A stretch of 64,000 bases of DNA from an uncultured Gammaproteobacteria bacterium (lineage in GTDB: Bacteria > Pseudomonadota > Gammaproteobacteria > Arenicellales > CAJQKF01): NCBI GenBank assembly GCA_964350265.1, contig CAYGJZ010000002.1:41007-105006 (forward strand). Direction: 5' to 3'. The first letter of the stretch is position 1, and each line of letters starts with the position of its first letter. Below the pieces are notes generated by a model. The model was given only the letters and a program-made list of their open reading frames with translations, did no database searches and was not told the origin of the DNA. The translations under genes were made by a program, and so were the position numbers. Of the stretch, positions 5,384 to 21,770 are shown piece by piece.

Positions 5384-5403
5384 TCTGCCTCGCGGGAAGC
5401 GGG

Positions 5404-7083: not shown

Positions 7084-7113
7084 ATATTGCAGGCATAGGG
7101 CAAGGAGGCGATG

Positions 7114-7141
7114 AGATGTTATCATCTGGTCTTTAACATCT
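7114..7141. promoter_or_regulatory. Inverted repeat AGATGTTA-N12-TAACATCT upstream of the GST gene
   Basis: The 8-bp arms are perfect. It lies in an AT-rich island 26 nt upstream of ATG 7167. It shares the TAACAT half-site with the TAACATGTTA palindromes. Confidence 0.45.
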
Positions 7142-7166
7142 TACAAGATCAACCAGGATCCTCGCC

Positions 7167-7775
7167 ATGAAACTGCACCAGCACCCGATGTCCGGCAATT
7201 GCTACAAGGTACGCCTGATGGCCTCACTGCTGGGCGTCGACGTTGCGTTGGTGCCCGTGGACTTGATGAACGGAGAGCAGAAGACTCCTGCCTTTCGGGC
7301 CTTGAATCCCCTCGGGCAAGTACCGGTTCTGGAAGATGATGGTGTACTGGTGCGCGACTCCCAGGCCATTCTCGTCTACCTCGCGCGCCGCTACGGTGGG
7401 GACGCCTGGCTGCCTGAAGACGCCGCTGGGCTCGCCGAAGTCATGCAGTGGCTGTCGTTTTCCGCCAGGGAGATGCTGGAGGGGCCGGCCCTGGCCCGGG
7501 CCCTCGTCCTGTTCAAGCGCACGGACGATCCGGAACCGGTGGCCAAGCGCGCACGACGGGCGCTCGCGGTGCTCGACGACCGTCTGCAGCACCATCCGTG
7601 GCTGGCGCTCGACCGGCCAACGGTGGCCGACGTCGCCTGTTATCCCTATGCCGCGCTGGCTCACCAGGGCGACCTGGACATCGGCGAACTCGATGGCCTG
7701 CTGGGTTGGTTCGCGCGGGTGCAGGGGTTGTCCGGTTACATTGCGCAGAAAGGCATCTACGAAGTTCCACTCTAA
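7167..7775 (+). CDS. Glutathione S-transferase
   Basis: The N-terminal thioredoxin-like half reads NPLGQVPVLEDDGVLVRDSQAILVYL. A C-terminal helical GST domain follows. The product is 202 aa. Confidence 0.9.
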   Translation: MKLHQHPMSGNCYKVRLMASLLGVDVALVPVDLMNGEQKTPAFRALNPLGQVPVLEDDGVLVRDSQAILVYLARRYGGDAWLPEDAAGLAEVMQWLSFSAREMLEGPALARALVLFKRTDDPEPVAKRARRALAVLDDRLQHHPWLALDRPTVADVACYPYAALAHQGDLDIGELDGLLGWFARVQGLSGYIAQKGIYEVPL

Positions 7776-7808
7776 TAACATCTTATATAGATCATATTGA
7801 CATGTTAT
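7776..7808. promoter_or_regulatory. TAACATCTTA plus TGACATGTTAT operator-like pair upstream of the PaaK-like operon
   Basis: It starts immediately after the GST stop codon. TAACATCTTA (7776-7785) duplicates 7134-7143. GACATGTTAT (7799-7808) is a one-mismatch variant of the TAACATGTTA palindrome. Confidence 0.45.
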
Positions 7809-7834
7809 AGAGTCGGCCCGTATCCTCGCCGCCT

Positions 7835-7878: not shown

Positions 7879-9294
7879 ATGACATCGCCGCAGGTACCGT
7901 ACTACTACGCCACGCTGGACTTCCAGGCACTGTGGCGGGACTATCCGCCGCCGCCGCGGGACGCCGATGTCGCGCGGGCATCGGCGGATGAAATCCGCGC
8001 CTTGCAGGAGCAACGTTTCGCCGAGCAGGTGGCCCGGGCCTGGACGATCCCTTTCTACCAGCGCCTGTGGGGCGAGGCAGGCATGCAGCCGGGGGATATC
8101 CGAGTACTCGACGATCTGTCGCGTTGCCCTTCGTTCACCGTCTCCGACCTGCGCGAAAGCATCGACCGGGCACCACCGTTCGGCGACTTCACCGGGGTCG
8201 ACCCGAAGAATGGCCCGCCCACGCCCTGGATCTTCCATACCAGCGGCGGAACCACCGGTTTGCCGCGTCCAATGCTGTACTCGCCAAAGGATCGCGAAGT
8301 CGTCAACATCCTGGGCGCCCGTCGCCTGCACATGGCGGGTATACGCGCGGGTGACATGGTGCAGGTGACTCACTCCCTGGGTCTGTCCAATGCCGGGATG
8401 TCCGCCGGGGAGTCTTTGTGGAAGTACTCCGGGGCAGTACCGGTCATGACCGGCAGTGGTTCATCGACGCCGTCACGGCGGCAGATCGAGCTTGCGAAGG
8501 CTTGGGGCAGCAACGCCTTGATCGGCTTCGCCGCCTACATGCGGCACCTGGCGCTGGTCTGTCGCGACGAGATGCGGATCGACCCGCGCGACCTTGGCAT
8601 CAAGTCCATATGTACACATCTCGGCACGGACGACCGTGCATCGCTGGAAGATCTCTGGAACGCGAAGGTGTACGACTCCTACGGTGCCAACGAGGCAGGC
8701 ATGATCGCCGCCGACTGCGAGGCGCGGAGCGGCATGCACGTGTTCGAGGATGCCCACTACGTGGAAGTGGTCGATCCGGTCTCGGGACAACCCGTACCCA
8801 CGGGTGCTGAAGGTACGGCGTTCATCACCAGCCTGTACAAGCATGCCGCACCGATGATCCGCTTCAACATCAACGACATTACCGCCATGGTTTCGGGAGA
8901 GTGTTCCTGTGGCAGCCGCCGGCGCAGGTTGCGCGGCATCCTCGGACGCAGCGACAACATGGTCAAGTTGCGCGGCGTCAATGTCTTTCCGGACGCCATC
9001 GGCGGCCTGATCCAGGACAACGACCGCATGACCGGCGACTACGTGTGCATCGTCGACACGGTGGCCGCAGGACGTGACGAGATGACCACCATGGTCGAGG
9101 CGTCTGGCAGCGAGGTCGACAGGGAAGCGCTGCGCGTGGATCTTGAGCAGCGGCTGCGCGAGGTCATCGGCGTGAAGATCGCGGTGGAAGTCGTGGACCG
9201 TGGCGCACTGGATCGCTACACCGGGTTGTCACAGACCTCCAAGGTCAAGCGCTTGATCGACAGGAGAAAGGACAAGCACCCGGGCACACACTAG
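7879..9294 (+). CDS. Phenylacetate-CoA ligase (PaaK)-family adenylate-forming enzyme
   Basis: The AMP-binding loop is HTSGGTTGLPRP. The overall layout is PaaK/F390-synthetase-like (LQEQRF..., YGANEAG, GRSDNMVKLRGVNVFP). Confidence 0.85.
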   Translation: MTSPQVPYYYATLDFQALWRDYPPPPRDADVARASADEIRALQEQRFAEQVARAWTIPFYQRLWGEAGMQPGDIRVLDDLSRCPSFTVSDLRESIDRAPPFGDFTGVDPKNGPPTPWIFHTSGGTTGLPRPMLYSPKDREVVNILGARRLHMAGIRAGDMVQVTHSLGLSNAGMSAGESLWKYSGAVPVMTGSGSSTPSRRQIELAKAWGSNALIGFAAYMRHLALVCRDEMRIDPRDLGIKSICTHLGTDDRASLEDLWNAKVYDSYGANEAGMIAADCEARSGMHVFEDAHYVEVVDPVSGQPVPTGAEGTAFITSLYKHAAPMIRFNINDITAMVSGECSCGSRRRRLRGILGRSDNMVKLRGVNVFPDAIGGLIQDNDRMTGDYVCIVDTVAAGRDEMTTMVEASGSEVDREALRVDLEQRLREVIGVKIAVEVVDRGALDRYTGLSQTSKVKRLIDRRKDKHPGTH

Positions 9295-9384
9295 CAGGTG
9301 AAGGTTTCCCGGTGCGCCGCAGGCCAGCGGTGTGAACAGGCTTGACATCGAACGCCGCATCGGCGGCAGCAACAGGAGAACGGT

Positions 9385-10176
9385 ATGGATCTGAAAATCC
9401 GGGACAAGGTGGCCATTGTCGGCGGCGCAAGCGGCGGCATCGGCTCGGCGATCGCCCACCAGTTGGGCAGCGAAGGTGCCCGTCTGGTGCTGTGGGCGCG
9501 CAAGGCAGAACCGCTGGAGCAGTCCGCCAGGGAGATTGCACAAGCCACCGGGGTCGAGGTGTTGACGGTGACCGGTGATATTCGCGAAGGCGAGGACCTT
9601 GAGCGGATCGTCGCGGCGACCATGGAGAAGTTCGGACAGGTGGATATCCTGGTCAACAACGACGGAGCACCGCGTCTTGGACCTCTGCTTACCTTTGACG
9701 ACGAGACCTGGGACAAGGCCATTCGCCAGATGCTGCTTTCCGTGGTGCGGTTGACGCGACTGTGCATTCCGTCGATGAAGGAGCGTGGGTGGGGTCGGGT
9801 GATCAACATCGGTGCGCTTGCGGGCAAGGCGCCCCAGGCGGGGTTTGGACTGTCCGCGGCCACCCTGGCGGGGATGATCGGCTACTGCAAGACGCTCTCG
9901 CGGGAGGTGGGGGCCGATGGCATTACCATCAACACGCTGTGTCCCGGCCGGGTGGATACCGCCCTGACCCGTCGTGCACTGAAGGCCCAGGCCGAGCACC
10001 GCAAGGCGTCGCTGGAGGACACCGTTGCCGAGGCAACCGCGCGCATCCCGGTGGGGCGGTTCGCACAGCCGGAGGAGATTGCCGCCGTGGTCGCCTTTCT
10101 TGCCTCTGAACAGGCTGCCTTCCTTACCGGTACCGCGTTGCAGGTTGACGGCGGCACGCTGGAAAGCATTGCCTGA
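9385..10176 (+). CDS. SDR-fold protein with intact dinucleotide-binding motif but degenerate catalytic tetrad
   Basis: GGASGGIG and NNDG are present. When aligned by eye to FabG-type SDRs, the Asn/Ser/Tyr/Lys positions read Met/Ala/Ser/Leu (IGALAGKAPQAGFGLSAATLAG). Confidence 0.85.
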   Translation: MDLKIRDKVAIVGGASGGIGSAIAHQLGSEGARLVLWARKAEPLEQSAREIAQATGVEVLTVTGDIREGEDLERIVAATMEKFGQVDILVNNDGAPRLGPLLTFDDETWDKAIRQMLLSVVRLTRLCIPSMKERGWGRVINIGALAGKAPQAGFGLSAATLAGMIGYCKTLSREVGADGITINTLCPGRVDTALTRRALKAQAEHRKASLEDTVAEATARIPVGRFAQPEEIAAVVAFLASEQAAFLTGTALQVDGGTLESIA

Positions 10177-10206
10177 ACCGTCGAACCCGACCACGGGAGA
10201 AATTCC

Positions 10207-11076
10207 ATGCCCATCTATGACCTCCATTCCCACTGGGGAACCCGGCGCGGCTACGCGCTGCGCTCGGAAAAAGAACTGGCGTTGCAGCGCAAGACCTGGA
10301 ACTCCGAGCCTGCCTATCACACCGAGGAGGAAATGGCTGCCTATTTTCGAGAAAGCGATGTGCGGGCCATTCTCGATTTCGGCTTCGACAAGTACCTGGA
10401 TCTCGAAGAAGCCGCCGAGTTGCACGACTACGGTATCGAGGTTCAACAAGCGTATCCGGATGTCATCATCGGCAACTGGATCCAGATCAATCCTCGCACG
10501 GGCAGCGCGGGTGTTCGAGAACTGCGACGGTGCAAGGACAAGGCCACCGGCTTCCTCGGCTTCGCGGCTTCTGGAAGTGGTGCGGGACCGGTCAGCGACG
10601 AAGTCTGGGCACCGTATTTCGAGTTCTGCGTCGAGGCGCAGATTCCGGTGCTCGTACTGGTGGGTACCACCGGCCTCGGTGCGGGTATGCCTGGCGGCAA
10701 CGGCATACTCATCGAGCACTGCCACCCGCGCTACCTCGACCAGGTCGCCGCCCGCTACCCGGACCTGACCATCGTTGCGGCGCGACCCGCCTGGCCCTGG
10801 CAGGCCGAGGCCATCGCGGTGATGCTGCACAAGCCGAATATCTGGTACGAGTTGCACGGGTGGTCGCCGAAGTATTTCACCCCGGACCTGAAGTACGAGA
10901 TCTCCCGCCGCCTGAAGAACCGCGTCATGTTCGGAGCCGATTACCCGTTGTTTACCTATGAACGGCTGCTGCGCGACTGGAAAGCGGAAGGATATGCCGA
11001 GGATGTCCTCGAGCGGGTGTTCACGCGCAATGCCGAGGCCTTCCTGGCCTCGATCCAGGGACGGGACCCGGCATAG
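10207..11076 (+). CDS. Amidohydrolase_2 (ACMSD-like) family metal-dependent hydrolase/decarboxylase
   Basis: An N-terminal HxH is present (IYDLHSHW), and the TIM-barrel amidohydrolase pattern continues to a C-terminal FGADYP. A GGGAGA Shine-Dalgarno lies upstream. Confidence 0.8.
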   Translation: MPIYDLHSHWGTRRGYALRSEKELALQRKTWNSEPAYHTEEEMAAYFRESDVRAILDFGFDKYLDLEEAAELHDYGIEVQQAYPDVIIGNWIQINPRTGSAGVRELRRCKDKATGFLGFAASGSGAGPVSDEVWAPYFEFCVEAQIPVLVLVGTTGLGAGMPGGNGILIEHCHPRYLDQVAARYPDLTIVAARPAWPWQAEAIAVMLHKPNIWYELHGWSPKYFTPDLKYEISRRLKNRVMFGADYPLFTYERLLRDWKAEGYAEDVLERVFTRNAEAFLASIQGRDPA

Positions 11077-11089
11077 ACCGCAGCGGTTG

Positions 11090-11120
11090 CCTCCCGATAC
11101 CGGGCCTGGGTACCGGGAGG
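11090..11120. terminator. Hairpin between convergent amidohydrolase and acuI genes
   Basis: The arms are CCTCCCGATACC and GGTACCGGGAGG (12 bp, one mismatch). A short T-run follows at 11131-11135. It is positioned to terminate both convergent genes. Confidence 0.45.
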
Positions 11121-11133
11121 TCGTCGTTCCGTT

Positions 11134-12126
11134 TTACTGCACCGCGACCACGGTACGGCCACGGATTTCCCCGGCGAGAATTCGCCGTCCCGCCTCGGGC
11201 ACGTCGGGCAGCCCGATGGTGTTCACCATGGAGTCCAGTCTAGCCATCGGCAGGTCGCTTGCCACGCGCTGCCAGGCCCGCGCCCGGGCGGCCGTCGGCT
11301 GCATCACCGAGTCGATGCCCAGCAGGTTGACGCCGCGCAGCAGGAAGGGAATGACCGTGGTGTTCAAGGAGCTGCCCCCGGCCAGTCCCACCGCCGCCAC
11401 TGAACCACCGTAGCGAATCTGGGTCAGGACGTGGGACAGCATGGTGCCGCCCACCGCATCCACGCAGCCAGCCCAGCGTTCCCGGTCCAGCGGCTTTGCA
11501 GGTGGTGAGGACAAGGCCTCGCGTTCAATGATCGTCGCGGCGCCGAGCGACCTCAGGTAGTCCGCGGTTTCCGCTCTGCCGGTGACCGCGGCAACTTGGT
11601 ACCCCAGGCTGGCGAGGATGGCGACCGCCACCGAGCCGACGCCGCCGGCCGCACCGGTAACCAGCACCTCGCCCTGGTCGGGCTCCAGACCGTGGTCTTC
11701 CAGCGCCATCACTGCCAGCATGGCAGTGAAGCCGGCCGTGCCTACCGCCATGGCCTGGCGAGCGGACAGGCCGGATGGTCGTGGCAACAGCCAGTCGCCC
11801 TTGACCCTGGCTCGCTCCGCGTAACCACCCCACCAGGTTTCTCCCACTCGCCAACCGGTCAGTAGCACCGGATCTCCAGCCTGGAACCGCTGGTCTTCCG
11901 AAACCACCACGGTGCCGGCCAGGTCAATGCCGGCAATGTGCGGATAGTTGCGTACCAGGCCACCCTTGCCGGACAAGCACAGCCCGTCCTTGTAGTTGAC
12001 GGTGGAGTATTCCACCGCAACCGTGACGCCTCCCTCCTGGGGCAGGGCGTGCTCGTTGATGGTCTCGACTGCGCTGGTGACCTTTCCCTGGTCGTTCTTC
12101 CGAGTGACGACGGCGTTGAATTCCAC
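11134..12126 (-). CDS. acuI: Acrylyl-CoA reductase / YhdH-family NADPH quinone oxidoreductase
   Basis: The product is colinear with E. coli YhdH as I remember it. Shared blocks include VNYKDGL, PHIAGIDLAGTV, LLTGWRVGETWWGGYAERARVKGDWL, GTAGFTAML, VTGAAGGVGS and GEIRGRTVV. Confidence 0.9.
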   Translation of the reverse strand: MEFNAVVTRKNDQGKVTSAVETINEHALPQEGGVTVAVEYSTVNYKDGLCLSGKGGLVRNYPHIAGIDLAGTVVVSEDQRFQAGDPVLLTGWRVGETWWGGYAERARVKGDWLLPRPSGLSARQAMAVGTAGFTAMLAVMALEDHGLEPDQGEVLVTGAAGGVGSVAVAILASLGYQVAAVTGRAETADYLRSLGAATIIEREALSSPPAKPLDRERWAGCVDAVGGTMLSHVLTQIRYGGSVAAVGLAGGSSLNTTVIPFLLRGVNLLGIDSVMQPTAARARAWQRVASDLPMARLDSMVNTIGLPDVPEAGRRILAGEIRGRTVVAVQ

Positions 12127-12259
12127 GTTGACCTCTTGCTGTGCAAATGATGGTTGATGGTGTGCCGCACCCAGTGACAGGCCATCCCAGGAGGCACGAC
12201 GTGCGGGATGCCTCGTTGAAACAGGTCACGAGGTGCTAAAGTGTCCAGAAGGTATAAAT

Positions 12260-12269
12260 TAACATGTTA
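12260..12269. promoter_or_regulatory. Exact palindrome TAACATGTTA (copy 1), upstream of acuI
   Basis: Read directly from the sequence. It lies 134 nt upstream of the acuI start on the minus strand. Confidence 0.55.
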
Positions 12270-12540
12270 GAGCATGGAGGATCGATACCCGCGATGCGGT
12301 TCGATGCCCTGGCTGCGCACTTGGCCCCACGTCCTGTCGACATTCTGCTAAGGCTTTCGGAGCCTGCGTATGGGATGCAAACCGCTGAAAAATCGTCGGT
12401 TATTGCGATATCCACGATGTAGAGCCGGCAATCCGCCGATTTTCCTGCCACAGGTCGTACGCACACGGCCAGTGGTCGATCCTGAAGACCAGGATACGTC
12501 GGGCTTGCAGATTTTCCTTGAAGTTCTAGAATAGCTTTCA

Positions 12541-12550
12541 TAACATGTTA
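12541..12550. promoter_or_regulatory. Exact palindrome TAACATGTTA (copy 2), upstream of the cupin-ABC operon
   Basis: Read directly from the sequence. It lies 43 nt upstream of ATG 12593. Confidence 0.55.
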
Positions 12551-12592
12551 ACTACATTGACCATCATCGAAACACAACGGGAAACCGCCACC

Positions 12593-13075
12593 ATGAGCAA
12601 GCCAACTGAACAGCAGACCTGGGGCGACAGGCTGGACGACGCGATCCAGGCGGCGTCGAGCGCGCGTCGGGAAGCACGCAAGGTGATTCGCTCGGAAGAG
12701 TTGCAATGGGAAGAGGACAAGATGGCCAAGAGCGCCTTGCTGGTGAGCGAGATGACCGGATTCTCGCTGCGCTCTATCCACGCATTTCTCGCCGAGATGC
12801 CACCTGCGGCATCCACCGGGAAACATCGTCACACCAGCGAAGCGCTGATGTACGCGTTGTCTGGCAGCGCCTACACCATCATCGACGGAGAGCGGATCGA
12901 CTGGAAGGCGGGAGATGCCATTGCCATCCCGGTGATGGCCTGGCATCAGCACTTCAATGCCAGCGACACCGAGCCGTTTCGCTACCTTGCCGCGAGCAAC
13001 TACCCGATGACGGTAAATCTCGGCGTGGAACTGATCGAGCACGCTGAATCGCGCAGCGATCTCGACGACAACTGA
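12593..13075 (+). CDS. Monocupin, gentisate-1,2-dioxygenase-like metal site
   Basis: The cupin motifs are GKHRHTSEALMYALSG and IPVMAWHQHFN. I chose ATG 12593 as the start. The ORF-track start at 12545 lies inside the palindrome. Confidence 0.7.
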   Translation: MSKPTEQQTWGDRLDDAIQAASSARREARKVIRSEELQWEEDKMAKSALLVSEMTGFSLRSIHAFLAEMPPAASTGKHRHTSEALMYALSGSAYTIIDGERIDWKAGDAIAIPVMAWHQHFNASDTEPFRYLAASNYPMTVNLGVELIEHAESRSDLDDN

Positions 13076-13094
13076 GCATGCGGGGAAGGCAGCG

Positions 13095-14192
13095 TTGATC
13101 ACCCTGACAAACATCAAGAAAACGTACCGTGGTACCCAGGCTCCCGCCGTGGACGGACTTTCGCTGACGGTAGAGGAGGGGCAACTGGTCACGTTGCTGG
13201 GTTCCAGTGGTTGCGGCAAGACCACCACCCTGCGTTGTCTTGCCGGGCTGGAAGAGCCTGATGCCGGAGAGATCGCCATCGACGGGGAGGTGGTGTACTC
13301 CAGCGAACGCGGCATCAACCTGCCTGCGAGCCGCAGACGACTTGGCATGGTGTTTCAAAGCTATGCCATCTGGCCGCACATGACGGTGTTCGAAAACGTC
13401 GCCTTTCCCTTGCGCTGCGAGAACAAGTCTCAAGACGAAATTGCAGAAGCCGTCGACTGGGCCCTGTCCCTGGTCAACCTGGAAGAATATGCACAACGTC
13501 GTGCGCCATTGCTTTCCGGTGGGCAGCAACAGCGGGTTGCCCTGGCCAGGGCGATCGTCAACCGTCCCCGGGTGTTGCTGCTTGACGAACCCTTGAGCAA
13601 CCTCGATGCCAAGCTGCGTGACCAGATGCGACTGGAACTGCGCCAGTTGCTCAAGGGCCTGAAGATTACCGCCGTGTACGTGACCCACGACCAGGACGAG
13701 GCCTACTCCCTGTCCGATGTGACTGCACTGATGAACGGTGGGCGCATTGTCGAGTACGGGCTGCCCATCGACATCTACAACCAGCCAAGAACAACTTTCG
13801 GCGCCGAGTTCCTCGGATTGTTCAGCCGGTTCCCGGGCACGGTTGTCGGAATGTCGTCGGAGAACCAGGCAAGGGTGCAATCCCCGCTCGGGGAAATCCT
13901 GTGCCACAGCCATGTCTCGCAGGCGGCGGGAACCGACGTCACCGTCTACCTGCGTCCGGAGGAAGTGGAAGTACTGGTGTCGTCCAGCGAACCCGGATTT
14001 GACGTGGACGTCACGGAAATCATTCGCCTTGGCAGCATCGTCGAATGGTGGGGGCAAGTCGGCGGAATCCAGGTGCGCGGAAGGATGTTGGCGGGGGCAC
14101 CAGGTGCCGCTCGCCTGCACGAGAGCGGAGTGGGGGGGCGATTGCGGGCGCACGTGTTGTCCGCACGATGCCTTCCCACGGATGCGGAATAA
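13095..14192 (+). CDS. ABC transporter ATP-binding protein (PotA/FbpC-like, with C-terminal regulatory domain)
   Basis: Walker A is GSSGCGKTT, the signature is LSGGQQQRVALA and Walker B is LLLDEP. The start is TTG, preceded by GGGGAAGG. Confidence 0.9.
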   Translation: MITLTNIKKTYRGTQAPAVDGLSLTVEEGQLVTLLGSSGCGKTTTLRCLAGLEEPDAGEIAIDGEVVYSSERGINLPASRRRLGMVFQSYAIWPHMTVFENVAFPLRCENKSQDEIAEAVDWALSLVNLEEYAQRRAPLLSGGQQQRVALARAIVNRPRVLLLDEPLSNLDAKLRDQMRLELRQLLKGLKITAVYVTHDQDEAYSLSDVTALMNGGRIVEYGLPIDIYNQPRTTFGAEFLGLFSRFPGTVVGMSSENQARVQSPLGEILCHSHVSQAAGTDVTVYLRPEEVEVLVSSSEPGFDVDVTEIIRLGSIVEWWGQVGGIQVRGRMLAGAPGAARLHESGVGGRLRAHVLSARCLPTDAE

Positions 14193-14215
14193 GCCAAACC
14201 AACGAGGAGCATGAC

Positions 14216-15322
14216 ATGACCGATCGAGGATTCTACAAGCAACGCAAGCCCCTGTGCCGGCTGGCTGGTGCCGCGTTGGCCGGTGCCATTGCGCTGGGGT
14301 TGTCCACCCCGGCTGCCGCGGAAGGCGACGTGCAGGCGACACTGGATGCCCTCGCCGGGATGGGGGGAGAAGAGCGTCTCGCCTTTCTCGAGGCCGAGGC
14401 GAACAAGGAAGGAAAGATCGTGGTGTACGCCGCGGATGATCCCAACGTGATGAAGGCCTGGGCAGATGCATTCGGCGAGAAGTACCCCGGTATCGAGGTG
14501 ATCTACCAGCGCATGAACACCCGCGACATGATCAGTCGCGTAGTGGCGGAAGTGGAGGCGGGCCGTCCTGTTGCTTCATTGCTCGGTGGTGTCACCGCGA
14601 CTGAGTTGGCGACGTTGAAGGAGAAGGGCTTGTTGGCCAGCTACCACTCTCCGGAAGCCGAGAGTTTCGATGCGCAGTTCAAGGATGAGAACGGCTACTG
14701 GACCGCACATTGGTTCGCGCCGGAGATCGTTGGCGTCAACGTCAACCAGTTGAAGAAGGAGGATGCACCGATCACCGTAGAAGACCTTGCCAACTCCGGC
14801 CTGGAGCGAAAACTGGGACGACGCAGTTCCGGGGGCCGCTGGCTGGCGGGTGTCGCCCACGTGCTCGGCGAGGAGAAGGCGCTCGAACTGGCGTCGCGTA
14901 TTGCCGATCTGAACCCGTTGCTGTTCAGCAGCACCAGCGCATTGACCAATGCGTTGACCAGCGGACAGATCTCGGTGGCCTTTGACATTCACGCAGGCAA
15001 TATCGGTATCGCCAAGGAGCGCGGCGCGCCGGTGGACTACGTGGTGCCCGAGCCGTTGTTCCTGCTTCCGGCCTACACGGTGTTCCTGAAGTCCGCGCCG
15101 CATCCCCATGCCGCGGCATTGAACTACGACTGGAGGCTGGCGAAGGATGGAGGCCAGGGAATGTACAAGGACTACCACCAGAATGGTCCGCGCCCGGATA
15201 CCGAGTATGCCTACATGGACATCATGAACGGCGCCAAGACGACGATCACCCTGAACCAGGACGTGCTCACGGAGATCCGCAAGTACGACGAGAAGTTCAA
15301 GGAAATGTTCGTCAAGGAATAA
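14216..15322 (+). CDS. Periplasmic substrate-binding protein (family-1, iron(III)/polyamine-type)
   Basis: A signal peptide is present (LAGAALAGAIALGLSTPAAAEG). An AGGAG Shine-Dalgarno lies 6 nt upstream of ATG 14216. The gene sits between the ATPase and permease genes. Confidence 0.8.
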   Translation: MTDRGFYKQRKPLCRLAGAALAGAIALGLSTPAAAEGDVQATLDALAGMGGEERLAFLEAEANKEGKIVVYAADDPNVMKAWADAFGEKYPGIEVIYQRMNTRDMISRVVAEVEAGRPVASLLGGVTATELATLKEKGLLASYHSPEAESFDAQFKDENGYWTAHWFAPEIVGVNVNQLKKEDAPITVEDLANSGLERKLGRRSSGGRWLAGVAHVLGEEKALELASRIADLNPLLFSSTSALTNALTSGQISVAFDIHAGNIGIAKERGAPVDYVVPEPLFLLPAYTVFLKSAPHPHAAALNYDWRLAKDGGQGMYKDYHQNGPRPDTEYAYMDIMNGAKTTITLNQDVLTEIRKYDEKFKEMFVKE

Positions 15323-15350
15323 CGGCAGGAACACTGGGCCAAGATCAGCA

Positions 15351-17081
15351 ATGAATACCGCACAACAGCCCTCGAGCAGTCGCGTACGTTGGTGGACGCG
15401 CATTGATCCCTGGCGTGACGGCACGACACTGTTGTGCGGTTTCCTGCTCATCTACCTGGTCGGTGTGCCGCTGGTTCTGCTGTTCTACGGCTCGGCGGCC
15501 ACCGGCGTCCCTGGTGAGGCCGGTGCGCTGAGTCTTTCCCGCTACTACGAGGTCCTGTCCGACCCGGATACCTACCGCTTGCTTGGTCGGTCGGTGGTCT
15601 ACGCCCTGGGTGTAGCCGCGGTGGCCCTGCCGCTGGGTGGCGTCACGGCCTGGTTGGTGCAGCGAACCAACCTGCCCGGCAAGGGAATTTTCGTGTTTCT
15701 TGCGCTGTGCCCGGCCTTCATGCCGCCGGTGTTGATCGCGCTGGGCTGGATACTGCTGCTGGACGGCAATATTGGACTCGTCAGTCGTTTCCTGCAGTCG
15801 ATGCTGGGTGCCGACGAACCCTTGCTGCAGGTGCACTCCCTGTACGGAATGATCTGGATCGGCGGCGTGCTCGACATGCCGCTGGCCTTTCTGTGGCTGT
15901 GGCCCGCCTTCGCGGCCATGGATCCCGCGCTCGAGGAAGCGGGAGCCATGGCCGGCGGGAGGCCCTGGCGAGTGCTGCGCAAGGTCACGCTTCCCCTGAT
16001 CTGGCCGGCCATTGCCGGTGCATTCCTGATCAGCTTTGTCCTTGCCATAGAAGACGTCACCGTACCGATCCTGGTCGGACTGCCGGGTCAGGTGCATGTC
16101 TTTGCCACGGACATCTACCTGGCCCATGCCCAGGAAACCCCGGATACCGCGCGTGCCAGTGCGCAGGGTGTCATCCTCTTGCTGGTCACCATCGGCTTCG
16201 TCTGGCTGTACCGCCACCTGACCCGCAAGTCTGAACGGTATGCCATCGTGCGTGGGCGTGGCTACCGACCGTCCGAAGTGTCTCTGGGTGTTTGGCGGTT
16301 GCCGGTGTTTGCGTTGATGTGCGCGGTCTTTGGTTTTGTCGTGTTGCTGCCACTGGTGATCCTGTTGTGGACTTCGCTCAGTCCCTATCTACAGGCGCCG
16401 ACGCTGGATGGCCTGACAAACCTCTCGCTGTACTGGTACCGCAGCCTGATTGATGACCCGATGGCCATTCGTGGATTGGTCAACAGCGCCCTGTCCGGGT
16501 TCGGCGCGGCGGTGGTGGTGATGGGCCTGTCGGTAATCGTTGGTTGGGCGGTCATTCGCTCGAAGAATCGCATCTGGGGCTTTCTCGACGTGCTCGCCTT
16601 CCTGCCGGTGGCGATTCCTGGACTGGTGGTCGGCCTTGGCCTGATCTGGCTGTACGTGCCGGTGGCGCTGCCGATCTACGGCACCCTGGTCATCATCTGG
16701 CTTGCCTACATCACCAAGTTCATTCCCTACGGTGCGCGACTGATCTACGCCGGCCTGCGCCAGTTGCACCCGGAACTGGAGGAGGCTGCGCATGTATCCG
16801 GGGCGAGCTGGGGCAAGACCTTGCGCAGAATCATCCTGCCGTTGCTCGCGCCGACGCTGGCAGCGGGCATCCTGTACTCCACCATGCGGGCGTTTCGGGA
16901 GCTGCCGGCATCGCTGTTGCTGGTGTCCTACGGCAACGAGACCTATTCGGTCATCGCCTATGAAATGTGGTCGGCCGGTGATCCCGGGCGTACCGCGGCC
17001 TACGGCATGGTGGTGATCGTAGTGATGACGACGATCGTCGCAATTACCTGGAGGACTGTGCGCAAATGGGCATTCCGATGA
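15351..17081 (+). CDS. ABC transporter permease, duplicated (two-module) FbpB/ThiP-type
   Basis: The 576-aa product is hydrophobic and contains two binding-protein-dependent transport modules. Confidence 0.85.
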   Translation: MNTAQQPSSSRVRWWTRIDPWRDGTTLLCGFLLIYLVGVPLVLLFYGSAATGVPGEAGALSLSRYYEVLSDPDTYRLLGRSVVYALGVAAVALPLGGVTAWLVQRTNLPGKGIFVFLALCPAFMPPVLIALGWILLLDGNIGLVSRFLQSMLGADEPLLQVHSLYGMIWIGGVLDMPLAFLWLWPAFAAMDPALEEAGAMAGGRPWRVLRKVTLPLIWPAIAGAFLISFVLAIEDVTVPILVGLPGQVHVFATDIYLAHAQETPDTARASAQGVILLLVTIGFVWLYRHLTRKSERYAIVRGRGYRPSEVSLGVWRLPVFALMCAVFGFVVLLPLVILLWTSLSPYLQAPTLDGLTNLSLYWYRSLIDDPMAIRGLVNSALSGFGAAVVVMGLSVIVGWAVIRSKNRIWGFLDVLAFLPVAIPGLVVGLGLIWLYVPVALPIYGTLVIIWLAYITKFIPYGARLIYAGLRQLHPELEEAAHVSGASWGKTLRRIILPLLAPTLAAGILYSTMRAFRELPASLLLVSYGNETYSVIAYEMWSAGDPGRTAAYGMVVIVVMTTIVAITWRTVRKWAFR

Positions 17082-17614
17082 GTAAAGACACCTTCAGCGA
17101 CGCCGACGCACTGCCGGATTCGCTGCCGGCGCCGGACCAGCGAGAACTGCGCAATGCCTTTGGCCGATTCGCCACCGGTGTGTGCGTGGTGACCACGCGC
17201 GACGCGGACGGTGCACCGGTTGGGGTGACCGTGAATTCGTTCAGCGCGCTGTCGCTGTCGCCGCCCCTGGTGTTGTGGTGCCTCGCCGAAACGGCGCTGT
17301 CTCGTGCCGCCTTCGAGCAGGCTGAGCGCTTCGCGGTAAACGTGCTCAGTGCCCACCAGCACGAGGTGTCGAAGAACTTCGCAACCTCGCGTGCGGACAA
17401 GTTCCGCAACCAGGTCTGGACGCCGGGCCTGGGCGATGTGCCGTTGCTGGGGGGAACCCTGGCACGGTTCGAGTGTCGTCGTTCTTCGCTGTTGGCAAAG
17501 GGGGATCACCTGTTGTTCGTTGGCCGGGTGGAGCGGTTTTCCTACGACGATGGCAATCCCTTGTTGTTCAGCGCCGGGCAGTACGGCGAGATGGCACGGG
17601 CATTGAGCGAATGA
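17066..17614 (+). CDS. Flavin reductase (HpaC/RutF-like)
   Basis: Characteristic blocks are FRNAFGRFATGVCVVTT, VNSFSALSLSPPLVLWC and GDHLLFVGRV. The gene overlaps the permease stop. A GGAGGA lies 9 nt upstream. Confidence 0.85.
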   Translation: MGIPMSKDTFSDADALPDSLPAPDQRELRNAFGRFATGVCVVTTRDADGAPVGVTVNSFSALSLSPPLVLWCLAETALSRAAFEQAERFAVNVLSAHQHEVSKNFATSRADKFRNQVWTPGLGDVPLLGGTLARFECRRSSLLAKGDHLLFVGRVERFSYDDGNPLLFSAGQYGEMARALSE

Positions 17615-17637
17615 TGTCGGTTTGCCGCGCGCGGGAA

Positions 17638-18384
17638 TCAGGTCGTCTCGAGGTGCAGGTTGCCCCCGTCCCTGGCGTCCCAGTGGAACGGGGTCGAAGA
17701 GGGCGCGCGGCACACGTGCAGACTGTACAGGTGACCGGTGGCCGGTTGGCGGTCGACTGTGCGGCCCACGGGCCGGATCTCGATCCGCGACTCGCCGAAG
17801 TCGAAGGTATGCCCGTCGTCTTTTTCCAACGTGCCGGGTTCCTGCTGCAACAAGGCCCGGTACAGCGCCGCCGTCTCTTCGATGTCGCTGCTCACCAGCC
17901 GAATGGCGGCTATTCCGTTGACCCCGTTGGGATGGCGGCAGGCTGGCGGTCGACGATGGGTGATCGGGGTGAGGTCTTCGATCAGGAAGGGCACCGTGCC
18001 CGGGGCGATGTGCGGGGGCACCGACAAGCGCCAGCGAATGGTGACACCGTCGGGCCTCGTTCGCGACATTTCCCGCGGCGGGCTCATGACGATACCGGCG
18101 GCGTCGTACCGCGCGAGGTCAGTGTCCAGGTCGTCGGAGATCGCGCAGAAGTCGGACAGTCCACCACCGCCGGCAAGGAGTGGCGCCCAACGATGCGACG
18201 GGTTCGGCTCGGCGAAGGCAAGCAACTCCAGGTAGCTGCCGTCCTCCAGTCCCACCAGGGCATTGTGGGTGCCCGTGGAATGGCGTCCTCCCGGGGTGAC
18301 GACGAAGCCCAGCCGGGCAAAACCTCGAATCGCTTGGTCAAGATTCGGGACCACGACAACGACATGATCAAGTCCAGTCAGCAT
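17638..18384 (-). CDS. VOC/glyoxalase-like domain protein
   Basis: The N-terminus reads LDHVVVVVPNLDQAIRGFARLGF...GTHNALVGLEDGSYLELLAF. The start is ATG 18384, preceded by AGGTGGA. Confidence 0.7.
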   Translation of the reverse strand: MLTGLDHVVVVVPNLDQAIRGFARLGFVVTPGGRHSTGTHNALVGLEDGSYLELLAFAEPNPSHRWAPLLAGGGGLSDFCAISDDLDTDLARYDAAGIVMSPPREMSRTRPDGVTIRWRLSVPPHIAPGTVPFLIEDLTPITHRRPPACRHPNGVNGIAAIRLVSSDIEETAALYRALLQQEPGTLEKDDGHTFDFGESRIEIRPVGRTVDRQPATGHLYSLHVCRAPSSTPFHWDARDGGNLHLETT

Positions 18385-18450
18385 TTTGGTTTTCCACCTG
18401 TCTTGCGCCCGTTGCCGAGAGCTTCCGGCGACAGGCTGTGATGAGTGCGG

Positions 18451-18492
18451 TGACATTTAAGAAAATGTCATCCAATTATAATTAACATGTTA
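18451..18492. promoter_or_regulatory. TGACATTT-N4-AAATGTCA inverted repeat plus exact TAACATGTTA (copy 3) in the VOC/LLM divergent region
   Basis: The inverted repeat is at 18451-18470. The exact 10-mer is at 18483-18492, directly abutting the AGGAG Shine-Dalgarno of the LLM gene (ATG 18507). Confidence 0.55.
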
Positions 18493-18506
18493 GGAGTGAC
18501 AATACA

Positions 18507-19532
18507 ATGGATTTCGGCGCCTTTGTCCTTTGCCAGAGACTGCACAGGGAAATCTCCTCAGCGGATGTGTTTGCCAATTCCCTGGAGCTGGTAAAACTGG
18601 CCGAGGAAGTTGGCTTCTCCAATGCCTGGTTCCCCGAACATCACCTTCTCCACTACGTTTCCTGCCCTTCGCCGTTGATGATGGCCGTGAAGGCGGCTTC
18701 CGTGACGCAGTCGATCCGCGTCGGCACCGCGATCGCGGTTGCACCGTACTACCATCCCATCCGGTTGGCCGGGGAGATCGGAATGGCCGACCATCTCACC
18801 GATGGTCGGTTGGAGATCGCGACCGGTCGGGGCGCGGTGAACTATGAGTTCTCCCGGTTCGGCATCGACGTGCCGACGGCCTCTGCGCGCTTCCAGGAGT
18901 CCGCCAAGGCGGTGCAGGATCTGCTGACCAACGAAGACTGTGTCAGCGACGGACCAACCTGGCCGTTTCCTGCGTCTACCGCGGTTCCACGGCCATTGCA
19001 GGATCCTTTTCCGCCGATGTGGGTAGCCGCGCGTTCGCCCGAAACCATCGACTGGTCGGTAAAGAACGGGTTCAACGTCATGACCAACACGCCCTGGGGC
19101 GAGCCGTTGGCGGCGATTGAGGCGGTGGGGCAGCAGTTTCAGGATGCCGTTTCCCGGGCCAATCCGACGGTGCGGCCGAAGTTCGGCGTTTCGCGCGTTG
19201 CATTCGTCGCCGAAAGCGACGCGGAGGCGCGTGCCGAGATGGACGCGGTGCAGGTCAGCAACCGGGTGTTTACCCGCCTGTTTCGAGACATGGCGGAGAT
19301 TCGTGGCGGGTTTGCCGAACCGGAGCCGGTGGAAGGCGAACCGACACCCGACGACCTGTTCAACGTGCTCATTGCCGGGTCGCCGAAGACCTGCATCGAC
19401 AAGTTGAAGATTCTCGAACGCGCAGGCGTCGATCACTTCATCATGTTCGTGTTCGGACGCGATCACGAATCGGCGATGCGATCGGTACGCATGTTTGGCG
19501 AGCAGGTCATTCCCGCGTTCCGCAAGGCATAG
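18507..19532 (+). CDS. Luciferase-like (LLM class) flavin-dependent monooxygenase
   Basis: The N-terminal block is AEEVGFSNAWFPEHHLL and the TIM-barrel LLM layout follows. A flavin reductase is encoded nearby. Confidence 0.85.
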   Translation: MDFGAFVLCQRLHREISSADVFANSLELVKLAEEVGFSNAWFPEHHLLHYVSCPSPLMMAVKAASVTQSIRVGTAIAVAPYYHPIRLAGEIGMADHLTDGRLEIATGRGAVNYEFSRFGIDVPTASARFQESAKAVQDLLTNEDCVSDGPTWPFPASTAVPRPLQDPFPPMWVAARSPETIDWSVKNGFNVMTNTPWGEPLAAIEAVGQQFQDAVSRANPTVRPKFGVSRVAFVAESDAEARAEMDAVQVSNRVFTRLFRDMAEIRGGFAEPEPVEGEPTPDDLFNVLIAGSPKTCIDKLKILERAGVDHFIMFVFGRDHESAMRSVRMFGEQVIPAFRKA

Positions 19533-19542
19533 GAGAGTAGCG

Positions 19543-20787
19543 ATGTCCATCACGGTGCTTGAGAATGCCTTTCTGCTGGACTGCACGGGGGCGGAGCCCC
19601 GGGACGGTGCCGCGGTCGTGATCGAGGACTCGATCATTCGCGAAGTCGTCGAGCCTGGTGGCAGGTTGTCCGCTTTTCCTGATGCCCGGAGAATCGACTT
19701 GCACGGGCTGACATTGATGCCAGGGCTGATCGACGCCCACGTGCATCTTTGCGCGGTGGAATCGAACCCGGCGGAGCAGCATCGACAAATCCCACCGAGC
19801 CTGGTGGCGGCAAAGGCGGTTCGACGGCTGGAGCAAACCCTGTTGCAGGGGTTCACCACGGTACGTGACGCGGGCGGTGCCGACTACGGCTTTCGCGAGA
19901 TGGTGGAACAAGGCGTGGTCGAGGGGCCACGGGTGCGGGTCAGCGGCAATCACATCTACCAGACTGGCGGGCACGGCGACAAGCGACGGCCGGCGGAACT
20001 GTGCTGCGCGATCCAGGCCACCGATGTCGGCATCGTCGGCGCGGTAGCCGATGGCTGCGACGAGGTTCGCAAGGTGGTTCGCGAGCAACTGCGCCGCCAT
20101 GCAGACCAGGTCAAGCTGATGTGTTCCGGTGGCGCGATGTCTCCTGGCGACGAACTGGAAACGTCACAGTTCACCCGAGAGGAAATTGCCGTCGCGGTCG
20201 CCGAGGCCGCCGCCGCCAACCGCTACGTCATGGCGCATGCCTACTCCGGTGCAGCGGTGCGCAACGCAGTGGCAGCAGGCGTACGTTCCATCGAGCACGG
20301 CAACCTGATGGACGAAGAAGCGGCAAGACTGATTCGCGATGCTGGTGCCTACCTGGTGCCGACGCTGGTGACCTACGAGGCCATCGCGCGCAACAGTGAG
20401 CGCATGGGCATCAGTGCCTTCATGCTCGAAAAGGTCAACGCGGCACGGGAGAAGGGGTTGCAGAGCCTGGAATACGCCTATCGTGCCGGCGTGAAGATCG
20501 GCTCCGGGTCAGACTTGCTCGGCGGCATGTTCCGATACCAGGCCCATGAACTCGAGCTGCAGGGCGAGGTGCAGCCGGCAATGGACGTCTTGCTCTCCGC
20601 GACCCGTGTCAACGCCGAAATCATGCGACTGGACGATCAGATCGGCACGGTGGAAGCCGGAAAGATTGCCGATCTCCTGGTGGTGCGCGGTAACCCGTTG
20701 AAGGATCTTTGTGTATTCCAGGATACCGACAACCTGCGCGTGATCATGAAGGAAGGCCGGGAAGTCAAGAACCTGTTGCCGGGGTAG
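19543..20787 (+). CDS. Amidohydrolase_1 family metal-dependent hydrolase
   Basis: Characteristic blocks are MPGLIDAHVHL, KLMCSGG, AHAYSG, SIEHG and GSGSDL. The C-terminal block reads GTVEAGKIADLLVV. Confidence 0.85.
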   Translation: MSITVLENAFLLDCTGAEPRDGAAVVIEDSIIREVVEPGGRLSAFPDARRIDLHGLTLMPGLIDAHVHLCAVESNPAEQHRQIPPSLVAAKAVRRLEQTLLQGFTTVRDAGGADYGFREMVEQGVVEGPRVRVSGNHIYQTGGHGDKRRPAELCCAIQATDVGIVGAVADGCDEVRKVVREQLRRHADQVKLMCSGGAMSPGDELETSQFTREEIAVAVAEAAAANRYVMAHAYSGAAVRNAVAAGVRSIEHGNLMDEEAARLIRDAGAYLVPTLVTYEAIARNSERMGISAFMLEKVNAAREKGLQSLEYAYRAGVKIGSGSDLLGGMFRYQAHELELQGEVQPAMDVLLSATRVNAEIMRLDDQIGTVEAGKIADLLVVRGNPLKDLCVFQDTDNLRVIMKEGREVKNLLPG

Positions 20788-20791
20788 GGGG

Positions 20792-21529
20792 CTAGAACCA
20801 GATCTCCTCCGCCGGCTTGTGTGCAAGGTTGATGTCAAGCAGCTCGGAACTGGAAAGCAACGCCTGGGAAACCATTTCGCGGGCGGCGCGAATCTGCTCG
20901 GCGGCAACGCCTTCGGCGACTTCTCCGTCCTGGCGCGCCAGCGCATCCACCAGCAGTCGGTGTTCGTGCTGCATTTGCGGCGTGCGGTCGCGTAGCGAAA
21001 GGCCGAAGTGGAACAGGCGCTCCATGTCCTCGAGCAGCTGACCGATCATGCGCGCGAGACGTTCGTTGCCGGAAGCCCGGGCAATGGTCACGTGGAACTC
21101 GTAGTTGGCTCGAAGGAAGACCGCGGTTCCCTGTTTGTCGTCGACGTTGTACTCGGTGCGGCAGATCTCGTCGAGGCGTCGCAGTCGCTCGGCATCGACG
21201 CCGTTCTGTGCCGCCAGGCGGGCCGCGGGCGGCTCCAGGAACAGGCGCAGCTGAAAGATGTTGTTGACGTCGCGGATGGTGATCGGCGCGATGACGTAAC
21301 CACGACGATGTACCGGTCGCACCAGGCCTTGCTGCGACAGTCGGGTCAGGGCGGCGCGAATCGGTGCCTTGCCAAGCTTGAGGCGTTCCGAGAGCTGTGA
21401 CTCGGTGACCTCGGAGCCCGGTTTCAGCAAGCAGTGGATGATTTCCTGCTTGATCTGGTCATAGGCGAGGTCGCCAAGCAGGGCGGGGGACTTTCGCTTG
21501 CTGGTCGTGGTTTTCTTCTGCGCCGCCAT
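20792..21529 (-). CDS. GntR-family regulator, FadR/FCD subfamily
   Basis: The N-terminal wHTH reads SQLSERLKLGKAPIRAALTRLSQQGLV. The C-terminal FCD-type helical domain reads FHVTIARASGNERL.... Confidence 0.9.
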   Translation of the reverse strand: MAAQKKTTTSKRKSPALLGDLAYDQIKQEIIHCLLKPGSEVTESQLSERLKLGKAPIRAALTRLSQQGLVRPVHRRGYVIAPITIRDVNNIFQLRLFLEPPAARLAAQNGVDAERLRRLDEICRTEYNVDDKQGTAVFLRANYEFHVTIARASGNERLARMIGQLLEDMERLFHFGLSLRDRTPQMQHEHRLLVDALARQDGEVAEGVAAEQIRAAREMVSQALLSSSELLDINLAHKPAEEIWF

Positions 21530-21560: not shown

Positions 21561-21594
21561 TGTCATGTCACTATACACGTTCATGTACATGTTT
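21561..21594. promoter_or_regulatory. ACATG-core sites (TGTCATGTCA; CATGTACATGTTT) just upstream of the gntR start
   Basis: Read directly from the sequence. The sites lie 32-65 nt upstream of the gntR ATG on the minus strand. This placement is consistent with autoregulation. Confidence 0.4.
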
Positions 21595-21737
21595 GGGATG
21601 CTTTGTTGATGCGGTCGTAATGGACGATTATCCGGGAAGTTACCGGCCGCTTGCCTGGATTGAGGTCAGGACTGCGAACTGCAAGATGACCGGGAATTCG
21701 TGTGGCCTGCGCAGGAATCGAAGGTTCGCATGGTCAA

Positions 21738-21770
21738 TAACATGTTATATATCATCCTTAAAAATGTTAA
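21738..21770. promoter_or_regulatory. Exact TAACATGTTA (copy 4) plus AATGTTAA half-site upstream of the cupin-rhodanese gene
   Basis: The 10-mer is at 21738-21747 and the extra half-site at 21763-21770. They lie about 150 nt upstream of ATG 21897. Confidence 0.55.

Follow-up and report, generated by a model that had tools for sequence, protein, structure and literature searches.

The window analysed here, a 64,000-nucleotide stretch of contig CAYGJZ010000002.1 from an uncultured gammaproteobacterium (Arenicellales), carries a real, conserved and palindrome-marked set of about 17 catabolic genes that is probably controlled by a repressor. The set combines a PaaK-family CoA ligase, an SDR-fold protein, two amidohydrolases (Amh1 and Amh2), an AcuI/YhdH-family reductase, a small cupin protein, an ABC importer, a flavin reductase, a luciferase-like flavin monooxygenase (LLM), a VOC-fold protein, a glutathione S-transferase (GST), two multi-domain rhodaneses (rhod1 and rhod4) and a GntR/FCD regulator. 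We read these genes as one repressor-controlled catabolic regulon, probably on an acquired island, that imports and degrades a carboxylic acid, most likely a sulfur-containing one, and we put the probability of this reading at roughly 0.45. An original prediction, made from the sequence alone, had placed the block at 7879-21529 and named ten enzyme and transporter families, all of which were recovered in our Pfam and NCBIfam profile searches. The gene map of that interval stands as well, but its boundaries do not, as the regulon runs past both ends; the regulator, the GST, the two rhodaneses and the build of the block from two modules had been missed.

A shared palindrome and a cluster-encoded regulator

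The promoter regions of the block are marked by a 10-bp dyad. Seven matches to TAACATGTTA with at most one mismatch occur in the 64 kb, against 0.14 expected, a count reached in none of 100 shuffled sequences. A degenerate form, T[AG]ACATGT[CT]A, has nine matches at the same tolerance, all of them intergenic and in promoter regions of this block. Most dyads are paired at a spacing of 21-22 bp (7112/7134, 7776/7798, 18461/18483 and 21738/21760), and three of the four sigma-70-like promoter matches between 7000 and 22000 overlap a dyad. Before the ligase gene we found a promoter-like TTGACA-18-TATCCT at 7797-7826, and a TTGTCA-16-TATAAT on the minus strand overlaps the dyad pair between the VOC and LLM genes. 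Dyads precede the GST gene and also lie between the regulator gene and rhod4, where a pair sits upstream of rhod4. The original prediction had counted seven co-marked transcription units; the shared marking is confirmed, but we count about eight units.

The regulator combines a GntR winged helix-turn-helix domain (PF00392, E 6.7e-12) with an FCD domain (PF07729, E 3.4e-23). Its orthologues lie inside the cluster in Aquamicrobium soli KCTC 52165 (locus L005), in a Mesorhizobium metagenome-assembled genome (MAG; L004) and in locus L002. In A. soli and the Mesorhizobium MAG, variants of the motif precede the genes for the ligase, the cupin, GntR and Amh1/VOC; others lie before the ligase gene on a metagenome contig (L086) and before the cupin gene on a MAG contig (L003). 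The palindrome stands at promoters and is conserved together with the regulator. Because the motif precedes orthologous genes elsewhere and the regulator is encoded in the cluster, the dyad is the probable operator of the block's GntR/FCD protein, as judged from these sequence comparisons.

Conservation and modular build

Close orthologues of the cupin are rare, being present in 3 of 185,579 species representatives. Two of these three, A. soli and the Mesorhizobium MAG, carry nearly the whole set in another gene order (AcuI, flavin reductase, rhodanese, ligase, SDR, Amh2, cupin, three ABC genes, GntR, Amh1 and VOC). A further locus, L096, is 91-96% identical to that of A. soli and extends upstream with an LLM gene, an MmgE/PrpD-family gene and an IclR regulator. 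The families of these three loci are 42-78% identical to those of the window, the GST excepted; the A. soli GST was found by Pfam alone and is too divergent for comparison by tblastn. About 15 gene families recur together, in changed order, in Alphaproteobacteria, where LLM, AcuI, flavin reductase, rhodanese and ligase genes run head to tail on one strand and a SufS-like cysteine desulfurase homologue and a DAO-family oxidase are added. On L086, a cupin-ABC unit is followed by divergent rhodanese-ligase-SDR-Amh2 genes. The original prediction had depended on orthologues being syntenic in related genomes, and we found them to be syntenic in distant ones (L004, L005, L096 and L086).

The loci resolve the block into a rare module of cupin, ABC importer, LLM and amidohydrolase, and a widespread module of ligase, degenerate SDR and Amidohydro_2 protein (Amh2). 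The cupin-ABC genes occur with the LLM, the Amidohydro_1 enzyme (Amh1) and the GntR regulator but without the ligase cassette in L002 and on a JGI contig, and in L002 a gene of the XDH family of molybdenum hydroxylases adjoins the LLM-Amh1-GntR-cupin-ABC unit. The same locus holds three paralogous binding proteins within 9 kb (11738-20495), 46-51% identical to that of the window; the genes scattered between them encode an OYE/pyridine-nucleotide-disulfide oxidoreductase fusion, an isochorismatase and a DUF1028 protein.

Composition sets the block apart from its surroundings. The GC content of third codon positions (GC3) is 0.72-0.81 across about 3.4-26.7 kb (3432-26665), against 0.86-0.93 in most genes on either side, and total GC, otherwise about 0.68, drops to about 0.62. 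By its composition the block appears to be acquired and probably sits on a horizontally acquired low-GC3 island. No tRNA was found in a tRNA search, no integrase or transposase was seen at the island edges, and no Rfam RNA element was detected in 3000-27000. A plasmid origin was rejected, as PLSDB gave no nucleotide match and no close cupin. The low-GC3 stretch also holds an open reading frame (ORF) with a methyltransferase domain (3432-5339) and an M20 peptidase gene (24863-26665).

Gene arrangement

The map in Table 1 is based on the ORF list and on Pfam and NCBIfam domain searches of the window proteins. Gene starts follow the gene calls of an identical metagenome contig, by which the binding protein, VOC and Amidohydro_1 genes were trimmed. 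The ligase, SDR and Amidohydro_2 genes form one operon, to which the AcuI gene is convergent. A second operon runs from the cupin gene through the ABC ATPase, binding protein and fused permease to the flavin reductase, with the VOC gene on the opposite strand; the LLM and Amidohydro_1 genes follow each other on one strand.

Table 1. Genes and putative operator sites of the block (window coordinates)
Feature	Position	Strand	Basis
rhod1, multi-domain rhodanese, ~536 aa	5473..7083	+	Rhodanese matches and gene call
Putative operator dyad pair (7112, 7134; 22 bp apart), upstream of GST	7112..7143
Glutathione S-transferase (GST)	7167..7775	+	GST_N and GST_C domains
Putative operator dyad pair (7776, 7798), overlaps -35 of ligase promoter	7776..7807
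PaaK-family acyl-CoA/AMP ligase, not PaaK equivalog	7879..9294	+	Pfam/NCBIfam
SDR-fold protein without canonical Ser-Tyr-Lys	9385..10176	+	Pfam, alignment
Amidohydro_2 (Amh2) TIM-barrel metalloenzyme, uncharacterised subfamily	10207..11076	+	Pfam
AcuI/YhdH-family enoyl(acrylyl)-CoA reductase	11134..12126	-	TIGR02823 above cut-off
Putative operator dyad upstream of AcuI	12260..12269
Putative operator dyad, 43 nt upstream of cupin start	12541..12550
Monocupin, 160 aa, gentisate/salicylate dioxygenase-like	12593..13075	+	Cupin_2, profile and fold searches
ABC transporter ATPase, PotA/PhnT2/UgpC-like	13095..14192	+	Pfam/NCBIfam
Periplasmic binding protein, SBP_bac_6/8, Fe3+/aminoethylphosphonate/pyridoxal phosphate-binding cluster	14216..15322	+	Pfam/NCBIfam
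Fused two-domain ABC permease	15351..17081	+	Pfam/NCBIfam
NAD(P)H:flavin reductase	17066..17614	+	Pfam/NCBIfam
Glyoxalase_3 (VOC-fold) protein, function unassigned	17638..18384	-	Pfam, gene call
Putative operator dyad pair between VOC and LLM genes	18461..18492
Luciferase-like flavin monooxygenase (LLM), LuxA-like, unclassified	18507..19532	+	Pfam/NCBIfam
Amidohydro_1 (Amh1, peptidase M38), N-acyl-imino/amino-acid amidohydrolase-like	19543..20787	+	Structure relatives
GntR/FCD transcription regulator, presumed palindrome binder	20792..21529	-	PF00392, PF07729
Putative operator sites (21561; pair 21738/21760) between regulator and rhod4	21561..21769
rhod4, four-domain rhodanese, 733 aa	21897..24098	+	Rhodanese matches, alignment

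The divergent intergenic region between AcuI and cupin (12127-12592) is unusually long (466 bp) and contains two dyads 281 bp apart; a 101-aa ORF on the minus strand lies inside it (12236-12541), with no Pfam match to the ORF and no Rfam match in the region. At 5345-5390, directly 3' of the ORF at 3432-5339 and 5' of rhod1, lies a nearly perfect, GC-rich hairpin (GCACCGCGGGAAGTCCC...GGGACTTCCCGCGGT) that resembles a terminator or a REP-like element. Farther away, at 32791-35881, a DUF2817 protein and an AurF-like ORF (diiron N-oxygenase-like, sub-threshold) are encoded downstream of an Opp/Dpp-type ABC transporter; these genes appear unrelated to the regulon.

The ligase-SDR-Amh2 cassette

The ligase belongs to the PaaK family without being a PaaK equivalog (NF041878, 220.8 against a cut-off of 700; TIGR02155, 197.8 against 646.3), and its closest solved structures are PaaK and 2-hydroxyisobutyryl-CoA synthetase. 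It has thousands of homologues, the best 120 of which are 56-66% identical. The SDR had been described as catalytically degenerate, and this description applies to the whole orthologous family: the classical Ser-Tyr-Lys (YxxxK) residues are replaced in the window protein and in all aligned cassette orthologues, which share GLS[AV]AT[LW]AG and a shifted GY[AC]K and keep the Rossmann GxxxGxG. Amh2 keeps an ACMSD-type metal site (invariant H7, H9, H173 and D245). Its homologues at E 1e-20 or better number over 1,300, the best 120 being 68-78% identical, and its only significant solved relative in the profile search is the uncharacterised BB4693. A Foldseek search with an AlphaFold model (pLDDT 85.4) gave an undifferentiated mixture of hydratases, decarboxylases, lactonases and diiron oxygenases.

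We clustered the neighbours at 54 loci of at least 6 kb that carry the ligase. An Amh2 of the window type is present at 29 of the 54 and the degenerate SDR at 25, and at many of the remaining loci a more divergent Amh2 (44-51% identical) adjoins the ligase gene. TctC receptors and IclR regulators are the commonest neighbours. The cassette is abundant in soil and freshwater metagenomes, and none of its members has a characterised close relative.

The monocupin

Gene calls and the family alignment place the cupin start most likely at 12593, giving 160 aa, and not at the ATG at 12545 within the palindrome. Eight residues are invariant in the family (H78, R79, H80, E83, W117, H118, Q119 and H120). 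Nineteen relatives, 13 of them 54-100% identical, came from a word-indexed search of 5.8 billion proteins, and an exhaustive search of 1.84 billion cluster representatives gave 17 matches at E 1e-30 or better. The best matches of the exhaustive search are mostly two-domain proteins of bicupin length. The top one, P0267 (341 aa), aligned in two stretches (277 bits, 41% identity) and looks like a tandem bicupin form of the monocupin family.

A profile built from the 19 family members was run against solved structures. It matched gentisate dioxygenase (3bu7) at E 7e-37 and 5-nitrosalicylate dioxygenase (NaaB) at E 8.8e-9, and a fold search agreed, with ring-cleaving dioxygenases best and DddK at rank 41 and below. 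The protein does not reach the gentisate dioxygenase equivalog (TIGR02272, 42.6 bits against 442.1). Its matches to the dimethylsulfoniopropionate (DMSP) lyases DddQ (5cu1, E 0.75) and DddK (6a55, E 2.1) were not significant, DddL and DddW not being compared directly, and on the profile search we rejected the DMSP lyase reading. The original prediction had seen in the metal site a 3-His ring-cleavage-like enzyme rather than a DMSP lyase, in agreement with both searches.

More distant monocupins of Chloroflexota and Actinomycetota, 43-50% identical over the barrel (loci L007-L083, for example L007 1411-4347 and L033 58-2741), repeatedly have as neighbours an XDH-family molybdenum hydroxylase (23 loci), its FAD subunit, a gentisate dioxygenase-like bicupin, a P450 and an aldehyde dehydrogenase.

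AcuI, transport, flavin and amidohydrolase enzymes

The AcuI/YhdH gene product matches TIGR02823 over residues 5-329 of 330 with 446.9 bits against a cut-off of 297.25, and the AcuI equivalog NF051456 with 428.5 against 440. An orthologue, 48% identical, lies in the operon of the alphaproteobacterial version. AcuI would fit a 3-substituted propionyl-CoA from which loss of the substituent yields acrylyl-CoA.

The best solved relatives of the binding protein are iron-binding proteins (E 1e-17), and the cluster to which it belongs also includes binders of pyridoxal phosphate (PLP), sugar phosphates and aminoethylphosphonate. For the flavin reductase the best models are reductases of aromatic hydroxylases; the FerA model stayed below its cut-off, and RutF scored 62.4 against 254.75. 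The LLM is 64% identical to its L096 and 55% to its L002 orthologue. The VOC (Glyoxalase_3) protein has no solved relative by sequence. Amh1 matches 3mkv (E 6e-101) and 3feq/3n2c (E 2e-95), which are prolidases acting on Xaa-Pro and N-acyl-Pro (PMC11511702), and scores below the cut-off of the Caulobacter-type Xaa-Pro dipeptidase equivalog. Its closeness to Xaa-Pro/N-acyl-proline hydrolases suggests an amide-linked or ring-closed precursor.

A possible recurrent link to sulfur

The CAGRTR[SG] active-site loop of the rhodaneses, a six-residue CX4R loop, is invariant in eight of eight aligned proteins, in one domain each. This CAGRTR family adjoins the cassette in three arrangements: that of the window and L086, that of the Alphaproteobacteria, and that of a third lineage. 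A rhodanese of the rhod1 family lies directly upstream of the ligase gene in L005/L096 and in L086, and rhod4 shares 49% identity with the L086 rhodanese of 724 aa that precedes the ligase gene. In the third lineage (L137, L140, L146 and L148) the rhodanese gene has that of a CDO_I thiol dioxygenase as its partner, and the two diverge from Amh2-SDR-ligase. This CDO_I protein keeps the 3-His site and the Ser-His-Tyr triad and appears to be of the Gln type associated with 3-mercaptopropionate dioxygenases. At these loci (for example L140 5598-11386) the CDO gene and that of a 550-aa rhodanese diverge from (TctC)-Amh2-SDR-ligase, and the flanks hold two alpha/beta hydrolases, a GDSL lipase and an RND efflux pump.

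The breakdown of an aromatic, heterocyclic or organosulfur acid had been suggested from the gene content; this broad guess is supported, and we narrow the class with a lean to organosulfur. We lean this way because of the conserved rhodaneses, the SufS-like gene and the CDO-type thiol dioxygenase beside the cassette elsewhere. The odds that the substrate is an organosulfur acid are about even.

Known pathways

The original prediction that the set fits no known pathway held. The PaaK, RutF, gentisate dioxygenase, AcuI and Xaa-Pro dipeptidase equivalogs all stayed below their cut-offs, and only the model of the broad subfamily of YhdH/acrylyl-CoA reductases passed. Neither the genes of the block nor the flanks that were sampled gave a match to the Pfam families of the paaABCDE epoxidase, PaaG, PaaZ or the beta-oxidation enzymes. 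As for the rut pathway, the LLM matched no RutA model, and the block is without an isochorismatase, RidA or alpha/beta hydrolase. As for gentisate, the GST scored 63.5 against 171 with maiA (maleylacetoacetate isomerase), and the block is without an FAA_hydrolase protein. The Pfam families of a GcvT-type demethylase, a 3-methylmercaptopropionate (MMPA)-CoA ligase, an acyl-CoA dehydrogenase and a crotonase (DmdA-D) are absent from the block. The S-(2-succino)cysteine pathway was rejected, its resemblance being architectural only. Literature searches for the gene combination, which included a proteome paper on thiodipropionate in Variovorax, returned no matching cluster.

Aquamicrobium was reportedly first described as a degrader of thiophene-2-carboxylate. 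Our analysis neither supports nor excludes this compound as the substrate; a literature search on the genetics of its degradation found nothing, and among the 185,579 species representatives no Aquamicrobium other than A. soli has a close cupin orthologue.

A possible route and its alternatives

In a regulon for a sulfur-containing carboxylic acid, the FCD domain would bind the substrate or an early intermediate and release the operators, and the compound would enter through the binding-protein-dependent ABC system. The M38-type amidohydrolase could then remove or open an N-acyl (proline-like or amino-acid) linkage. The oxygen-dependent steps would fall to the LLM, for which the flavin reductase would provide reduced flavin, and to the monocupin; oxidation of a C-S bond or thiol and cleavage of a ring are the candidate reactions. 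The PaaK-like ligase would turn the resulting acid into a CoA thioester, which the degenerate SDR-fold protein and the Amidohydro_2 enzyme might process, perhaps expelling the sulfur group through beta-elimination or through hydrolysis. AcuI would reduce the 2-enoyl (acrylyl-type) CoA to a saturated acyl-CoA, and the rhodaneses and the GST may deal with the sulfur set free as sulfane sulfur, sulfite or thiol. Acids of the 3-thio- or 3-sulfino-propionate type and sulfur heterocyclic carboxylates are the best-fitting substrate classes. A more specific version, which we regard as unlikely, is an undescribed CoA-dependent desulfurisation of beta-thio or beta-sulfino acids. Here the monocupin would be a new organosulfur dioxygenase outside the CDO family, functionally replacing the CDO-type enzyme found beside the cassette elsewhere, and the ligase/SDR/Amidohydro_2 trio would act as an activation-plus-elimination system that frees the sulfur group and passes an acrylyl-type CoA to AcuI.

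Several points weigh against a sulfur-acid regulon. We infer the order and the chemistry of the steps. No enzyme of the block is an equivalog of a characterised sulfur-metabolising enzyme, and the cupin is not of the CDO family (Cupin_2 only, no CDO_I; mercaptosuccinate dioxygenase at E 0.74). Most copies of the ligase-(SDR)-Amh2 cassette (more than 40 loci) are without a nearby rhodanese or CDO gene and are linked to TctC and IclR genes, and the dyad does not match the classical GT-N-AC core of FadR-type GntR operators. The nearest relatives of the cupin, by sequence and by fold, are gentisate, salicylate and 5-nitrosalicylate dioxygenases, which cleave aromatic rings, and the molybdenum hydroxylases, bicupins and P450s beside its distant relatives point to heteroaromatic rather than thiol chemistry. 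These last observations suit a sulfur-free hydroxy-aromatic or N-heteroaromatic carboxylate whose ring is cleaved by the cupin, with the GST isomerising the product, the amidohydrolases opening an amide or lactam and the rhodaneses as bystanders. So do the bicupin length of most top matches in the exhaustive search, the XDH-family gene in L002, the aromatic hydroxylase reductases among the best models of the flavin reductase, and maleylacetoacetate isomerase as the best, if sub-threshold, NCBIfam match of the GST. We consider this alternative possible but doubtful, given that Pfam and NCBIfam revealed no Rieske, HpaB-type or PHBH-type aromatic hydroxylase, no FAH and no meta-cleavage hydrolase in the block, and that it leaves AcuI, the operator-linked repeated rhodaneses, the CDO partner and the SufS-like gene unexplained. 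A sulfur-bearing heterocyclic or aromatic acid would reconcile the sulfur and the ring-cleavage evidence.

One repressor might instead govern a stress or detoxification regulon of independent modules against electrophiles and thiols (AcuI, GST, the glyoxalase-fold protein and the rhodaneses), with transport and ligase unrelated. Several members do come from families typical of detoxification, and the modules are distributed independently, the cassette being widespread alone and the cupin-ABC-LLM-Amh1 genes occurring without it. This is nevertheless improbable in our view: the complete set is found together in two lineages far apart, although its gene order has changed; the placing of a dedicated importer and a CoA ligase behind one and the same putative operator speaks for nutrient use; and the alphaproteobacterial version strings LLM, AcuI, flavin reductase, rhodanese and ligase head to tail. 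More improbable still is iron uptake as the role of the operon from cupin to flavin reductase, with an importer of the FbpABC kind for ferric iron and a ferric reductase that depends on flavin. The iron-binding relatives of the binding protein and the sub-threshold FerA match are weak similarities, the binding-protein cluster has ligands other than iron, and the operon presumably shares its metabolite-type GntR/FCD regulator with catabolic enzymes. A locus for DMSP cleavage and acrylate detoxification, suggested by the AcuI-family gene divergent from the cupin, is barely credible. The DddQ and DddK scores stand against the far stronger match to gentisate dioxygenase, and the Pfam families expected for DddD/P/X or DmdA-D were not found in the block.

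Repressor-controlled catabolic clusters are common; here the unit is defined by a regulator, a putative operator, an importer and about a dozen enzymes conserved across classes. Its core enzymes come from subfamilies without a characterised member, and once a function is assigned to the cassette, a large amount of environmental sequence could be annotated. Should the sulfur reading be true, the regulon would be a route of organosulfur acid turnover distinct from the CDO/desulfinase and DMSP routes. A cultured carrier exists in A. soli KCTC 52165.

Comparison with known systems

The cupin shares with gentisate, salicylate and 5-nitrosalicylate 1,2-dioxygenases the HRH...WH.H motif and the cupin fold, and these enzymes are its best sequence and fold matches. 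Unlike the gentisate and salicylate dioxygenases, which are bicupins of about 350 aa, it is a 160-aa monocupin with invariant Glu83 and Gln119; NaaB is also a monocupin, but was matched only at the E value given above. The remaining genes of the gentisate pathway are absent from the block. The ligase is of the same adenylate-forming subfamily as PaaK and 2-hydroxyisobutyryl-CoA synthetase, but its partners are always an Amidohydro_2 protein and usually the degenerate SDR, not paaABCDE or a mutase. AcuI resembles the AcuI/YhdH enzymes of DMSP and acrylate metabolism in its full-length, above-cut-off match to TIGR02823, and differs in falling just under the AcuI equivalog cut-off and in its genomic partners. 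Amh1 has strong full-length similarity to the prolidases Sgx9260b/c and related M38 aminoacylases, but is encoded, with a predicted activity, within a catabolic regulon.

The S-alkylcysteine salvage systems yxe and ytm of B. subtilis resemble the block in having an LLM, a flavin reductase, an N-acyl-amino-acid amidohydrolase and an ABC importer (PMC9706529). The LLM of the window is short and LuxA-like, and the yxeK product is not among its solved relatives; the amidohydrolase is of the M38 and not the M20 type, there is no N-acetyltransferase, and a CoA ligase branch is present. The gene yxeQ of the yxe operon is of the MmgE/PrpD family, of which L096 also carries a member.

Mercaptosuccinate clusters comprise a cupin dioxygenase, a rhodanese, a PLP-dependent C-S lyase and an ABC transporter (PMC5373536). 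Like the thiol-acid clusters built around CDO-family enzymes, such as the mercaptosuccinate dioxygenase of Variovorax paradoxus B4 and Advenella mimigardefordensis or 3-mercaptopropionate dioxygenase, the block has a small cupin dioxygenase, a rhodanese, an ABC importer and one regulator, and its alphaproteobacterial version shares with the mercaptosuccinate clusters a PLP sulfur-lyase-type gene. Advenella uses SucCD to activate 3-sulfinopropionate and an enzyme resembling acyl-CoA dehydrogenases to remove the sulfino group (PMC5373536); a desulfinase of this type has no counterpart in the block. The window cupin is gentisate dioxygenase-like and its regulator is of the GntR rather than the LysR type, and the CDO-type thiol-acid clusters are without the CoA ligase, AcuI, LLM and two amidohydrolases that are all present in the window. 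At four loci a CDO gene and the same rhodanese family adjoin the same ligase cassette.

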